This document shows, in pieces, positions 42,627-49,231 of a stretch of 64,000 bases of DNA. The notes under the pieces are model-generated. The model searched no databases. It saw nothing but the letters and a program-made list of their open reading frames with translations, and was not told where the DNA came from. The stretch's first letter is position 1; each line of letters begins with the position of its first letter. The DNA comes from Nitrosopumilus sp. (lineage in GTDB: Archaea; Thermoproteota; Nitrososphaeria; Nitrososphaerales; Nitrosopumilaceae): NCBI GenBank assembly GCA_965197525.1, contig OZ240211.1, positions 832,001-896,000 of the forward strand, written 5' to 3'. The position numbers and the translations under genes are program-made.

Positions 42627-42686
42627 TGTAATAACTTCTAGTTTATTAAAAAGATACTTGTAAATAAATGATCGTAAGAATCAATT

Positions 42687-44323
42687 TGGAATTACATACT
42701 TGGATTACATTATACGTCAATCATATATAATGCGCCGATTATTAACTGGATGGAAAAAGAAATAAAAGATTTTATTTATAGAACAGTGATTGTAAAACCA
42801 AGGCAGACAAAAGAACTGTCATTAAAGGCACGCAGGATTGCAAACTTTCAGACGTATTTTTTCAACATGGGTGTAGAGGCAGGACTAGTTGAAAAATATG
42901 ACAAAATCAAGACAAGCCGTACCATTACTGACATACATCACACCATGCCATGGAGCAACAGATACCACACCAATGTGGCAACAACTGCGTTCCAACAGGG
43001 GCATGATACGGCAGACAAACATTTGAAATCCTGCGCAAAAAAACGTAGGGTACGAAACTGGGCAAAAAAGACTGGCGGCAAGAACCACAACTGGCACACG
43101 TCATTTAAAAATCTCAAACCAAACAAATGGATTGACAGAAACAGTTTGTTCAGAAACTCCAAAAATGCAAAGCATACATCCATAACAGTAAACGGTCAGA
43201 ACCCCTCGCTGAGAATGGGAAAGTGGAAAAAACTGTACATGAACCTGCCTGGTATGGGTCAGGTGGAGCTGTTGTCGTCTTTGAAGAGTCTTCCAAAGCA
43301 ACTGGTATGTGAAAGAGACAAAAACAGCACTAGCAAATTCTACCAGACCAACATTGTATCATACAGGCTTGTTGAGAACACCAAAAAAATCACTGCCAAT
43401 ACAAACGATTCGAACCGCACGTTTGAGATCCATCTGACATTAAAAATACAGAGACCTAAAAATACGAATTGTGTAGTCGTATGCGGAATAGACATGGGGG
43501 TTAAGAAATCCCTAGTCGTTCATAACGGAATAAACACCGATTTTTACAGGACACCTTATTCCTGTAGGAGAAAAAAAGACGATGTAGTCTCAGAACAACA
43601 GTCAAAAAGAGACGGTCACAAACTGCATAGTAACAGATGGAAAAAAGAGGATCGCAAACTGAAGAGGATGAAGAAAACACTCAACAACAGAAGAACCGAG
43701 CACAATAATTTCCTTGCCAAACAGATTGTGATGAGAACAGGAGTGATAGTCATGGAAAAACTAAACATTGGCAATATGACTGCAAAAAATGAAAAGCGGA
43801 AAAGTGGCCTTAACAGGGAGATTTACGGGGCAGGTATGGGAAGAATGGGGGATAGAATAAAAATGACTGCCGAAAACCACGGAACCAAAACGCTTGAGAT
43901 TGTTCCACATTATACCAGCATAACGTGTAGTAAGTGCAATATGATCAACAGCAACTCTAGAACTACCAGGGATGTGTTTCAATGCGTATACTGTGGATTT
44001 CTGTGCGATGCAGACGGTAACGCCGGCACAAACATCAGACACTACGGACTTCCATGCATACGAAGGCTCCCGCTTGTAGACAGATATGGAAACTACAGGT
44101 GTGACAGCATGGAAAATATTATTTTAGCTAATAAAAATGGCACATCTAATAGTGTCAGTATTATTAGTGGCGGTAGGGACTATCGTCACAAGACAGAAGA
44201 ATCAAGACATGGCTTACACCATGTTGTTTCTAAAAAAGACGGCAAGAACCAAGCTGTGAATGATTTGTTGGACTGTCAGAAAAAAACCTTGGTGCAGAAA
44301 CGTAACCTAGGTATATAAGTCCC
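42687..44323 (+). mobile_element. 1637-bp TIR element (GGGAATTA family), copy 1, containing only tnpB
   Basis: Ends (T)GGAATTACATACTTGG...CCTAGGTATATAAGTCCC; 8-bp TSD AATCAATT (42679-42686 / 44324-44331); same length as copy 2. Confidence 0.88.
42750..44318 (+). CDS. tnpB: Large TnpB-like RNA-guided nuclease, 522 aa, with C-terminal extension
   Basis: RuvC-I CGIDMG, RuvC-II VMEKL, Zn finger YTSITCSKC...CVYC and RuvC-III DADGNAGTNI; catalytic residues present. Confidence 0.88.
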   Translation: MEKEIKDFIYRTVIVKPRQTKELSLKARRIANFQTYFFNMGVEAGLVEKYDKIKTSRTITDIHHTMPWSNRYHTNVATTAFQQGHDTADKHLKSCAKKRRVRNWAKKTGGKNHNWHTSFKNLKPNKWIDRNSLFRNSKNAKHTSITVNGQNPSLRMGKWKKLYMNLPGMGQVELLSSLKSLPKQLVCERDKNSTSKFYQTNIVSYRLVENTKKITANTNDSNRTFEIHLTLKIQRPKNTNCVVVCGIDMGVKKSLVVHNGINTDFYRTPYSCRRKKDDVVSEQQSKRDGHKLHSNRWKKEDRKLKRMKKTLNNRRTEHNNFLAKQIVMRTGVIVMEKLNIGNMTAKNEKRKSGLNREIYGAGMGRMGDRIKMTAENHGTKTLEIVPHYTSITCSKCNMINSNSRTTRDVFQCVYCGFLCDADGNAGTNIRHYGLPCIRRLPLVDRYGNYRCDSMENIILANKNGTSNSVSIISGGRDYRHKTEESRHGLHHVVSKKDGKNQAVNDLLDCQKKTLVQKRNLGI

Positions 44324-45309
44324 AATCAATTTGTTGCTTTAATAATAACAGAATGCAGTTTGGTACATCGGATTATTGAATATGACTATTTAAGAGTAGA
44401 GCGATGAATGAATAAAATGTAAAAAATATGAAGATTGAAAGAATCAAAAAAGACAAGGTAGTTTGAAATAATAATAATAATAATAAGATAATCCATGGTT
44501 TGGATAAAAAACCAAAAATAAATTTTTGCTTGTTAGAATTTTCTTAGAAGTGTGTATATAATAGATCAGAGATGTTTGATTGAATGTTTTTTAACGGATA
44601 AGAATAAGATGATTTAGTGTGGTTCAATGAATGTAGATATAATTGATAGCGCAGTAAGAATAATTCAAATACGATTAGATAATTAGAATAAGACAAAATA
44701 ACATCCCATACAGAAAAATTCATTCCAGAAAAAGAGATAGACGTGATAGCAACGCACGATTGCTCGGTTTTAAAACACAAACCTAAGAAAAGGATTTGAA
44801 AGAAAGATATTAAAAAATTGTAAATGGAAGATGACAGATACTATGTACTCAAAAATACAATTATTTGAAATAAACTAGATAGTAGAAATGGGGCTGACAG
44901 CCCAACGCATGGACTGCCAGCTGTTCCCCGAACGGTTTGAATTCGATGTCAATTTACACAGTAAAGAATATGATTTAAACGTTTGAAAGTGTGTTAAAAT
45001 CATCATGTAGATACTGCAAAGTCAGATAAAGTTAGTCTCCTAACAATATAAGAATAAACTATAAAACAACTTGGGTTAAGATCAGACAGTGTAGAACTTG
45101 TGAAAAAACAGATGCGGAAATTACGTATTGGTACAACATTGCTTGTGTAGATATTTTCTACCATTAATTAAATTGTAAAAAGGTCCTGCATACGTTAAAC
45201 CAGAAAATGAAAATAAAATGTCAGCATTCAAGATGAAATATGCTTGTTAAAACTAGATTTTATGGCATGTAGATTAAAAAGATTAATAATTTGAATATTT
45301 GATGGACAT

Positions 45310-47476: not shown

Positions 47477-47512
47477 GACATAGCATTATTAAAAATTGAC
47501 GGTAAATTCAAT

Positions 47513-49149
47513 GGGAATTACATACTTGGATTACATTATACGTCAATCATATATAATGCACAGACTATTAACTGGATGGAAAAAGATATAGAAGATTTTA
47601 TTTATAGAACAGTGATTGTAAAACCAAGGCAGACAAAAGAACTGTCATTAAAGGCACGCAGGATTGCAAACTTTCAGACGTATTTTTTCAACATGGGCGT
47701 AGAGGCAGGACTAGTTGAAAAATATGACAAAATCAAGACAAGCCGTACCATTACTGACATACATCACACCATGCCATGGAGCAACAGATACCACACCAAT
47801 GTGGCAACAACTGCGTTCCAACAGGGGCATGATACGGCAGACAAACATTTGAAATCCTGCGCAAAAAAACGTAGAGTACGAAACTGGGCAAAAAAGACTG
47901 GCGGCAAGAACCACAACTGGCACACGTCATTTAAAAATCTCAAACCAAACAAATGGATTGACAGAAACAGTTTGTTCAGAAACTCCAAAAATGCAAAGCA
48001 TACATCCATAACAGTAAACGGTCAGAACCCCTCGCTGAGAATGGGAAAGTGGAAAAAACTGTACATGAACCTGCCTGGTATGGGTCAGGTGGAGCTGTTG
48101 TCGTCTTTGAAGAGTCTTCCAAAGCAACTGGTATGTGAAAGAGACAAAAACAGCACTAGCAAATTCTACCAGACCAACATTGTATCATACAGGCTTGTTG
48201 AGAACACCAAAAAAATCACTGCCAATACAAACGATTCGAACCGCACGTTTGAGATCCATCTGACACTAAAAATACAGAGACCTAAAAATACGGATCGTAC
48301 AGTCGTATGCGGAATAGACATGGGGGTTAAGAGATCCCTAGTCGTTCATGACGGAATAAACACCGATTTTTACAGGACACCTTATTCCTGTAGGAGAAAA
48401 AAAGACGATGTAGTCTCAAAACAACAGTCAAAAAGAGACGGCCACAAACTGCATAGTAACAGATGGAAAAAAGAGGATCGCAAACTGAAGAGGATGAAGA
48501 AAACACTCAACAACAGAAGAACCGAGCACAATAATTTCCTTGCCAAACAGATTGTGATGAGAACAGGAGTGATAGTCATGGAAAAACTAAACATTGGCAA
48601 TATGACTGCAAAAAATGAAAAGCGGAAAAGTGGCCTTAACAGGGAGATTTACGGGGCAGGTATGGGAAGAATGGGGGATAGAATAAAAATGACTGCCGAA
48701 AACCACGGAACCAAAACGCTTGAGATTGTTCCACATTATACCAGCATAACGTGTAGTAAGTGCAATATGATCAACAGCAACTCTAGAACTACCAGGGATG
48801 TGTTTCAATGCGTATACTGTGGATTTTTGTGCGATGCAGACGATAACGCCGGCACAAACATCAGACATTACGGACTTCCGTGCATACGAAGGCTCCCGCT
48901 TGTAGACAGATATGGAAACTACAGGTGTGACAGCATGGAAAATATTATTTTAGCTAATAAAAATGGCACATCTAATAGTGTCAGTATTATTAGTGGCGGT
49001 AGGGACTATCGTCACAAGACAGAAGAATCAAGACATGGCTTACACCATGTTGTTTCTAAAAAAGACGGCAAGAACCAAGCTGTGAATGATTTGTTGGACT
49101 GTCAGAAAAAAACCTTGGTGTATAAATGTAACCTAGGTATATAATTCCC
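47513..49149 (+). mobile_element. 1637-bp TIR element (GGGAATTA family), copy 2, containing only tnpB
   Basis: Ends GGGAATTACATACTTGG / CCTAGGTATATAATTCCC (14/17 inverted match); 8-bp TSD AATTCAAT (47505-47512 / 49150-49157). Confidence 0.92.
47576..49144 (+). CDS. tnpB: Large TnpB-like RNA-guided nuclease, 522 aa, copy 2
   Basis: 11 amino-acid differences from copy 1 by my count; catalytic D/E/D retained. Confidence 0.88.
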   Translation: MEKDIEDFIYRTVIVKPRQTKELSLKARRIANFQTYFFNMGVEAGLVEKYDKIKTSRTITDIHHTMPWSNRYHTNVATTAFQQGHDTADKHLKSCAKKRRVRNWAKKTGGKNHNWHTSFKNLKPNKWIDRNSLFRNSKNAKHTSITVNGQNPSLRMGKWKKLYMNLPGMGQVELLSSLKSLPKQLVCERDKNSTSKFYQTNIVSYRLVENTKKITANTNDSNRTFEIHLTLKIQRPKNTDRTVVCGIDMGVKRSLVVHDGINTDFYRTPYSCRRKKDDVVSKQQSKRDGHKLHSNRWKKEDRKLKRMKKTLNNRRTEHNNFLAKQIVMRTGVIVMEKLNIGNMTAKNEKRKSGLNREIYGAGMGRMGDRIKMTAENHGTKTLEIVPHYTSITCSKCNMINSNSRTTRDVFQCVYCGFLCDADDNAGTNIRHYGLPCIRRLPLVDRYGNYRCDSMENIILANKNGTSNSVSIISGGRDYRHKTEESRHGLHHVVSKKDGKNQAVNDLLDCQKKTLVYKCNLGI

Positions 49150-49231
49150 AATTCAATAATTCTTTGTAAAAAAGATTTGAAACAGAGTACAGGTAACATT
49201 TTAAACCTTCAAAAATTTCAATTTACTTCGT

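Follow-up and report, generated by a model that had tools for sequence, protein, structure and literature searches.

A tnpB-only cassette with IS1595-type ends, probably inserted at the upstream edge of host promoters in a Nitrosopumilus-type archaeon

TnpB is the ancestor of Cas12. To our knowledge, its role has been worked out only for the IS200/IS605 and IS607 families, in which the target motif of the transposase doubles as the target-adjacent motif (TAM) of the nuclease. TnpBs are also found inside DDE transposons. The passages on these elements in Altae-Tran et al. (2023 PNAS; PMC10691335) distinguish branches DDE-1 to DDE-6, in which tnpB lies between inverted ends with its 3′ end within 250 bp of the element end, along with solo copies that sit between the same ends and are presumed to be moved in trans. 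A 2026 review (PMC13565253) considers the reasons for which a homing nuclease should be of little use to DDE elements. Here, we describe a 1637-bp cassette that encodes a TnpB and is present twice in a 64,000-nucleotide stretch of DNA, hereafter the window, which covers positions 832001-896000 of the 2.21-Mb single-contig genome of a sponge-associated Nitrosopumilus-type archaeon. We interpret the cassette, with a probability of roughly 0.7, as a non-autonomous transposon with IS1595-type ends that carries only an OMEGA module, that is, tnpB and the scaffold of its omegaRNA, and that is moved in trans and integrates at the edge of host promoters.

The two copies in the window are identical in length and share 98.5% of their sequence. 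Their inverted ends begin GGGAATTACATAC on the left and GGGAATTATATAC on the right, with 85% complementarity over ~25 nt. The original prediction of two elements of equal length with imperfect terminal inverted repeats and 8-bp target-site duplications of their own was accurate apart from one base, in that copy 1 starts with T instead of G (copy 2 has GGGAATTACATAC in full). The sole long open reading frame (ORF) in each element is tnpB, the TAA stop codon of which lies 5 nt from the element end, within the right repeat. In the 522-aa protein, 93 residues follow the RuvC-III motif, in agreement with the earlier description of an ORF that fills the element, stops inside the right repeat, and extends about 90 residues past this motif.

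Across the genome, there are seven independent insertions of this cassette family, each with a perfect and different 8-bp duplication. Four are uninterrupted full-length copies (copies 1 and 2 along with two outside the window). In the fifth (genome C1:33714-52173), 16.8 kb of foreign DNA separate the first ~59 nt, at the 5′ end, from the rest, with the duplication CTACTGAA common to both halves, and all five of these tnpB frames are open. The sixth copy is interrupted by a 1302-bp insertion sequence (genome C1:1331427-1332728), while the seventh insertion is a 386-bp internal-deletion derivative; outside the seven stands a further 5′-truncated copy with only the right flank readable. The interrupting insertion sequence has inverted ends of its own starting with CAGTAGTCGGAAATGTAC and is present in at least five copies, another of which adjoins the 386-bp derivative. 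Perfect 8-bp repeats bounded 10 of 10 complete insertions of what we call the A-clade, and a perfect 8-bp duplication was found in three diverged relatives. With seven insertions that each have a perfect duplication and the same in three relatives, the pattern is beyond chance.

Comparison with a related strain provides direct evidence for mobility. One DNA contig joins position 47512 straight to a diverged counterpart of the sequence after 49157, with one 8-mer at the junction, and is the empty site of copy 2. In that same DNA run, the element is found at another site, bounded exactly at 47513 and 49149 and with GCCATATG on both sides. The element has therefore been mobile since the related strains diverged. 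The original prediction had staked its view of the 8-bp repeats, as true duplications left by independent insertions, on an empty-site comparison of this kind, and the single 8-mer in the related strain favors that view.

Because transposase-bearing IS1595 elements have the same termini and footprint, we class the ends of the cassette as IS1595-type and the cassette itself as a non-autonomous derivative without a transposase of its own. In L087, a Chloroflexota metagenome-assembled genome (MAG), both ends around an IS1595 transposase (51% identity) fit GGGRATTAYATAY-N-T-NN-RTTAC with a 7/8 duplication. Furthermore, elements with an IS1595 transposase in other genera of the Nitrosopumilaceae (L066 and L070) start with GGGAATTAT and have perfect 8-bp duplications. 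These matches to DDE_Tnp_IS1595-encoding elements with 8-bp duplications back the family assignment of the original prediction. The cassette ends also fit the form ggnnatTAT of the ISNwi1-type subgroup of IS1595, a candidate label for them. An identity of the cassette as an IS200/IS605 or IS607 element was ruled out, because each of its copies has inverted ends of 25 nt and a duplication of 8 bp.

Two ORFs in the genome have a complete DDE_Tnp_IS1595 domain. The first, of 333 aa (genome 615175-616176), is located ~1 kb inward of an end at genome 614150, GGGGATTATATACATGGGTATAC, that agrees with the first 13 nt of the cassette at 11/13 positions for the left end and 12/13 for the right end. This end also has the GT(T/A)TAC inner block that is common to the cassette ends. 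No recognizable inverted ends were found for the second transposase (338464-339318). On a contig from a relative, a 105-aa DDE_Tnp_IS1595 gene is called ~500 bp upstream of tnpB. Most likely, the cassette is mobilized in trans by an IS1595 transposase that is encoded elsewhere, for which we infer the 333-aa ORF to be the candidate. The gene of this transposase is abutted by an IS6-ended TnpB element (616698-618028).

The position of the insertions relative to host genes follows a regular pattern. Moving outward from the left end, one encounters the 8-bp duplication, 11 nt, and then a TATA-like 8-mer beginning with TT. When flank motifs were scored in 10-11 sites, 8 of 11 had TAA at -14 to -12 relative to the duplication, and solely in the left flank (corrected p ~2e-5). 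We then considered a set of 13 sites, comprising the ten A-clade insertions, the IS1595-type ends at genome 614150 and at a remnant (1395933), and a 165-bp miniature element in the window that is without tnpB and without the RNA scaffold. TTWWWW was present in 12 of these sites and TTWWWWWN in 10, compared to 0.6% of random positions. Orientation was constant, with the left end facing the promoter and tnpB pointing away from the host gene. Measured from the element tip, the ATG of a long host ORF was found at 47-49 nt (seven sites), 54 nt (two sites), or 60 nt (one site). Over the whole genome, TATA-like 8-mers have a sharp maximum 28-30 nt ahead of the ATG of long ORFs, and where the host ATG was 47-49 nt away (seven sites), the spacing is exactly the leaderless promoter geometry of this organism. 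Both copies in the window have the TATA box at the 11-nt distance: the box beside copy 1 precedes a divergent RNase H-like gene (42090-42626), and beside copy 2 a divergent minus-strand ORF of 77 aa (47234-47464) starts with an ATG at 47464, 29 nt past the beginning of the TATA box. The cassette is thereby positioned ~41-48 bp upstream of host start sites, just past the expected B recognition element (BRE). At random oriented positions, the frequency of the joint promoter criterion was 1.5e-4. Promoter geometry was absent or inconsistent in the L066 and L070 IS1595 copies and in two groups of distant tnpB elements described below (the 1350-bp element and two of the four copies of the 1503-bp family).

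Such a pattern could reflect survival if insertion were random with respect to AT-rich DNA and only harmless sites upstream of core promoters persisted. In the rough coding mask that we used as background, ~72% of the genome is coding, and selection would remove insertions that hit genes or core promoters; AT-richness and the lack of a strict consensus are further features of the duplications. Yet, survival does not account for the base-exact spacing in most sites, nor for the constant orientation. Furthermore, when TATA-like 8-mers were restricted to those with a would-be target outside long ORFs, promoter geometry was found for 3.8%, compared with 6 of the 10 observed sites (p ~5e-7). We therefore regard survival as an improbable explanation on its own, and the fixed orientation and exact spacing argue for what would be targeting.

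If insertion is targeted, TnpB could, with or without its RNA, help choose the site by marking or opening TATA-like TAMs for the transposase. Read on the tnpB strand, the TATA box becomes WWTAA, followed by 11 nt and the duplication, which places the duplication at positions 12-19 from a TAM-like motif. The staggered cuts of TnpB and Cas12 fall at roughly these positions, and WTAA resembles the AT-rich TAMs of IS605-type TnpBs. The motif is also one-sided and at a fixed distance, and orientation is constant. However, the 11-nt segments differ at every site, so that no single guide pairs with them, and the DDE-bearing IS1595 copy and the 165-bp element have the same geometry even though both are without tnpB. 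The motifs are, moreover, real promoters, as the distance from the start of the TATA box to the ATG is 28-30 nt, just as in the genome at large, which is something that a TAM does not need. RNA-guided choice of new sites was a candidate that we rejected, given that similarity between the flank that would supply the donor guide and the new target was not above chance. When right flanks of donors were compared with new targets, the longest shared words were 9 nt in 3 of 49 pairs against ~0.3 expected; two of these three pairs represent one reciprocal flank similarity, and the result is not convincing. For these reasons, a contribution of TnpB to site choice seems to us quite improbable. Since elements that are devoid of tnpB have the same geometry, it is probably the transposase and the ends, not TnpB, that set the spacing.

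The underlying cause may be recognition of a bound promoter, a preference for sequence or shape, or in part survival. We can tentatively envision that IS1595-type machinery recognizes core promoters bent by TATA-binding protein (TBP) and transcription factor B (TFB) and integrates one-way 11 bp upstream of TATA, while TnpB and its guide RNA guard occupied sites. At present, we consider this specific proposal to be possible and somewhat doubtful.

The TnpB itself is a putative RNA-guided nuclease with a canonical catalytic triad. The Pfam domains OrfB_IS605 (PF01385; 47-50 bits) and Cas12f1-like_TNB (PF07282; 47-48 bits) were both above the cut-off, and there was no match to HTH_OrfB_IS605 in the Pfam scan of the 522-aa protein. 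Across 13 homologues, invariant residues included D248, E336, and D422, which align to D191/E278/D361 of ISDra2, as well as C393, C396, C412, and C415 of a zinc finger that lies between RuvC-II and RuvC-III. When a predicted model of moderate confidence was compared with Foldseek, the ternary complex of ISDra2 TnpB (8H1J; E 1.3e-13) ranked first and Cas12f and ISFba1 TnpB came next, with Fanzor2 as the 17th-best fold match only. These comparisons of the predicted structure point to a WED-REC-RuvC fold. Identity as a Fanzor was considered and dismissed, as the host is archaeal and E336 is in the canonical place, 57 residues before C393, and not in the rearranged Fanzor position. Among the five open copies in the genome, dN/dS was 0.2-0.3 over residues 1-440, and therefore TnpB is under purifying selection.

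The 3′ end of tnpB evolves under a different regime from the rest of the gene. Codon identity at identical residues was 0.72-0.80 in the last ~60 codons vs 0.45-0.55 elsewhere (seven coding sequences), and within the genome synonymous change was ~0 in codons 441-522 vs 0.05-0.15 elsewhere. The last 200 nt fold with a z of -3.7. In an alignment of six lineages, we identified six helices with 43 pairs, in which 93% of cells were paired compared to 28-42% when partners were slid. Double-sided changes were found in 12 pairs, and 0 of 500 shuffles reached the observed values. A 27-nt insertion in the most distant relative (L045) sits in the loop of helix 1, and the numerous G-U pairs fix the sense strand of the RNA structure. 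The inner part of the right terminal repeat takes part in the last helix, after which 11 nt remain unpaired up to the element tip. In copy 2, the right repeat houses the 3′ arm of this helix together with the stop codon of tnpB and the 11-nt tail. The corresponding region of copy 1, six helices plus the tail, spans the last ~50 codons. No Rfam family matched the 3′ region. Taken together, the last ~160-190 nt contain a sense-strand RNA structure that is conserved and fits an omegaRNA scaffold. The C-terminal extension is in frame in all full-length homologues, and its conservation seems to be largely RNA-driven. The overlap of this extension with a structured RNA had been anticipated and is now supported by covariation, by the slid and shuffled controls, and by synonymous suppression. 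Separately, there is a conserved DNA block, ATTTTAGCTAAT at 48944-48965, some 40 nt ahead of the first RNA helix. The scaffold RNA may have an internal promoter in this block, and one of the RNA-library contigs discussed below begins at 48964.

Under the mechanism that we propose, an IS1595 transposase encoded elsewhere would move the cassette in trans, with integration aimed at the upstream core-promoter edge of leaderless genes, ~-41 to -48 from the start site, such that the promoter stays intact. Transcription of tnpB would depend on a TATA box that the left end itself provides, and the omegaRNA would exit the right end with a guide that consists of the duplication and the host flank. The guided TnpB could then cut unoccupied alleles, with repair copying the element back and leading to retention or homing. 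This last step is modeled on the TnpBs of IS200/IS605 and IS607. Homing by the cassette TnpB is an analogy with these families and not a finding, because there is no TAM signature and flank similarity is not above chance.

Several observations weigh against our interpretation. With a guide made of the duplication and the right flank, the empty allele would need a TAM at the very end of the left flank, but no conserved motif was found directly 5′ of the duplication, inside it, or in the right flank among 10 reconstructed empty sites; the host TATA box at 11 nt is the one conserved feature of the flanks. The excision of DDE cut-and-paste elements already leaves a break, which makes the benefit of a homing nuclease less obvious (PMC13565253). 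The cassette contains no transposase, tnpB being its only long ORF. The original prediction had called for an autonomous partner with matching ends, and that search succeeded by half: the IS1595 copy with the 333-aa transposase has a near-identical left end, but no right end is recognizable where it abuts the IS6-ended TnpB element. The AlphaFold model of TnpB is poor, with a mean pLDDT (predicted local distance difference test) of 58 and values of <50 for residues 416-522. Finally, in RNA library X1, four short contigs lie on the element, one of which spans 48964-49149 and continues into the flank of another copy. This contig is compatible with read-out into the flank and proves nothing, as it has no strand or end information and possibly represents DNA carry-over; the uncovered parts of the element are uninformative.

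The missing TAM, at the place where homing requires one, along with the fixed position beside host promoters, would also be expected if TnpB were a domesticated regulator similar to TldR, or part of an addiction module akin to toxin-antitoxin systems, with the promoter-side position being regulatory. Against this, the D/E/D catalytic triad is intact and canonical, and the cassette behaves as a mobile element in being multicopy, bounded by repeats, variable among strains, and represented by truncated and interrupted copies. In addition, a guide read from the flank would be directed to the side opposite the adjacent promoter. A regulatory or addictive role is thus very improbable in our judgment, and we retain the view of the cassette as a trans-mobilized transposon with an OMEGA module. 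The features of the window on which this view draws are listed in Table 1.

Table 1. Cassette copies, their component parts, and associated promoter-like sequences, given as positions in the window
Feature	Position	Strand	Remarks
Host TATA-like box, copy 1	42660..42667	-	TTATTTAC; 11 nt beyond left duplication
Left target-site duplication, copy 1	42679..42686	.	AATCAATT
Cassette, copy 1	42687..44323	+	1637 bp; IS1595-type ends
tnpB, copy 1	42750..44318	+	522 aa; intact open frame
omegaRNA-like structured region, copy 1	44167..44323	+	placed by register with copy 2
Right target-site duplication, copy 1	44324..44331	.	AATCAATT; inferred to be the first 8 nt of a flank-derived guide
Host TATA-like box, copy 2	47486..47493	-	TTTAATAA; 11 nt beyond left duplication
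Left target-site duplication, copy 2	47505..47512	.	AATTCAAT
Cassette, copy 2	47513..49149	+	1637 bp
Left terminal inverted repeat, copy 2	47513..47537	+	inverted-repeat pair I1
TATA-like sequence, copy 2	47549..47557	+	~27 nt before tnpB ATG; likely the leaderless promoter of tnpB, judging from genome-wide geometry
tnpB, copy 2	47576..49144	+	522 aa; D248, E336, D422 and CxxC...CxxC zinc finger
Zone of suppressed synonymous change	48956..49149	+	codons ~461-522
Conserved RNA helices H1-H6	48993..49138	+	43 pairs, 12 with compensatory changes
Right terminal inverted repeat, copy 2	49125..49149	+	
Right target-site duplication, copy 2	49150..49157	.	AATTCAAT
Miniature element, 165 bp	59809..59973	+	same type of end as the cassette, GGGGATTATATA...; duplication TTTCATAT; TATA-like box 11 nt off

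Beyond copy 2, a tRNA-Thr gene (49232-49305) lies just before an array of fifteen tandem 21-bp repeats, many of them identical (49323-49763), at the start of a thioredoxin/DsbA-like gene (49385-50542).

The lineage to which this TnpB belongs is rare. Among 1.84 billion cluster representatives, 12 reach an E of 1e-30, and close relatives (41-97% identity) come from metagenome assemblies only. Of 300 genomes from the family, this genome alone has proteins closely related to it, and no relative came to light when one genome per species was scanned with a protein pattern. The sequencing runs that contain the cassette are from sponge samples, and the relatives that were recovered with an end-pattern search are from Nitrosopumilus and Nitrosopumilaceae MAGs. 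Homologues with 77, 56, and 42% identity have the same type of end, and perfect 8-bp duplications were found for the 56% and 42% homologues along with L061. At this last, metagenomic locus (L061:270-2033), the right end shares the duplication not with the element's own left end but with another left end located 132 bp farther out, where the same transposase apparently used a neighboring end variant. In another relative (L057), inverted ends are present and a matching 8-bp repeat is absent.

More distant TnpBs, with 25-34% identity over nearly their full length, also lie between GGGRATTAYATAC ends with 8-bp duplications. One of these is in the genome under study, namely a 1350-bp tnpB-only element (C1:1984842-1986191) with a 7/8 duplication, in which a 443-aa TnpB that is 29% identical to that of the cassette fills the element from repeat to repeat. 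Others belong to a 1503-bp sister family with four copies in a related Nitrosopumilus genome (L107, L085, L050, L056). In three of these four copies, TTGAT-like bases (TTGATTG, TTTGATG, ATCATTG) are found directly 5′ of the duplication, which is the expected position of a TAM for a flank-derived guide, an observation that is limited to four sites in this family. This TnpB clade and IS1595-type ends are an old pairing that can be followed down to 42% identity and, more loosely, to relatives with 25-30% identity.

The zinc-ribbon domain of TnpB is matched fifty-two times in the 2.2 Mb of the genome, mostly in 1.3-kb elements with IS6-like inverted ends. BLAST detected no similarity of these IS6-ended TnpBs to the cassette TnpB, and therefore the two TnpB/DDE pairings in the genome are separate lineages that are unrelated beyond the RuvC core. 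This speaks to the original prediction of a second independent capture of TnpB in the same genome. The distinctness of the lineage from the IS6-ended TnpBs stands, but the pairing is old and there is no sign that it arose here.

As a TnpB inside a DDE transposon, the cassette is of a known kind; its ends are tied to IS1595, comparisons support its omegaRNA scaffold, and its insertions follow a promoter-proximal rule. Our literature search found no paper that pairs TnpB with IS1595 or mentions TnpB in Nitrosopumilus, and no report of archaeal insertion sequences at a fixed distance from TATA boxes. With the elements in the passages on DDE-TnpBs (PMC10691335), the cassette shares the location of TnpB between symmetrical inverted DDE ends, a tnpB 3′ end less than 250 bp from the element end, and the form of a solo copy. 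The DDE partners named there (IS630) and in the pertinent part of the 2026 review (ISL2, IS630, and IS1031; PMC13565253) do not include IS1595. In contrast to the elements of PMC10691335, the cassette has an ORF that continues across the entire RNA scaffold and into the terminal repeat, and its insertion is linked to host promoters. A reading frame that runs through its own guide-RNA scaffold shows how tightly a compact module can be packed. Compared with IS1595 insertion sequences, which encode an ISXO2-like DDE transposase, the cassette has the shared GGGRATTAT ends, the 8-bp duplication, miniature derivatives, and the same termini in transposase-bearing relatives, but it has no internal transposase and its cargo is an OMEGA module.

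The TnpBs of IS200/IS605 and IS607 (ISDra2, PDB 8H1J/8EXA) have the same fold, RuvC triad, and zinc finger as the cassette TnpB, and a 3′-overlapping RNA scaffold that abuts the element end. The sequence match, however, is limited to the RuvC/zinc-finger core, and the cassette differs from these families in having inverted repeats and duplications, no Y1 or serine TnpA, and no TAM adjoining the insertion point. Fanzor1 of eukaryotic DDE transposons offers another likeness, that is, a TnpB-type passenger in an inverted-repeat element that generates duplications. Viewed in this company, the cassette is a nuclease and guide-RNA module that has long resided in a DDE transposon, the 8-bp targets of which vary and have no TAM next to them. 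It represents a natural test of the role that an RNA-guided nuclease has in an element of the cut-or-copy-and-paste kind.

The promoter-proximal rule invites a final comparison. If targeting is true, an oriented position at a fixed distance upstream of archaeal core promoters would be a safe-haven strategy that is new to the literature we searched. The retrotransposons Ty3, Ty1, and Tf1 integrate a fixed short distance from promoters that are bound by transcription factors, thereby sparing genes. They differ from the cassette in element class, enzyme, and domain of life, and recognition of TBP/TFB by the cassette machinery is hypothetical. Should promoter recognition be true, the cassette would represent a prokaryote-domain counterpart of the promoter-tethered integration of Ty3 and Ty1.

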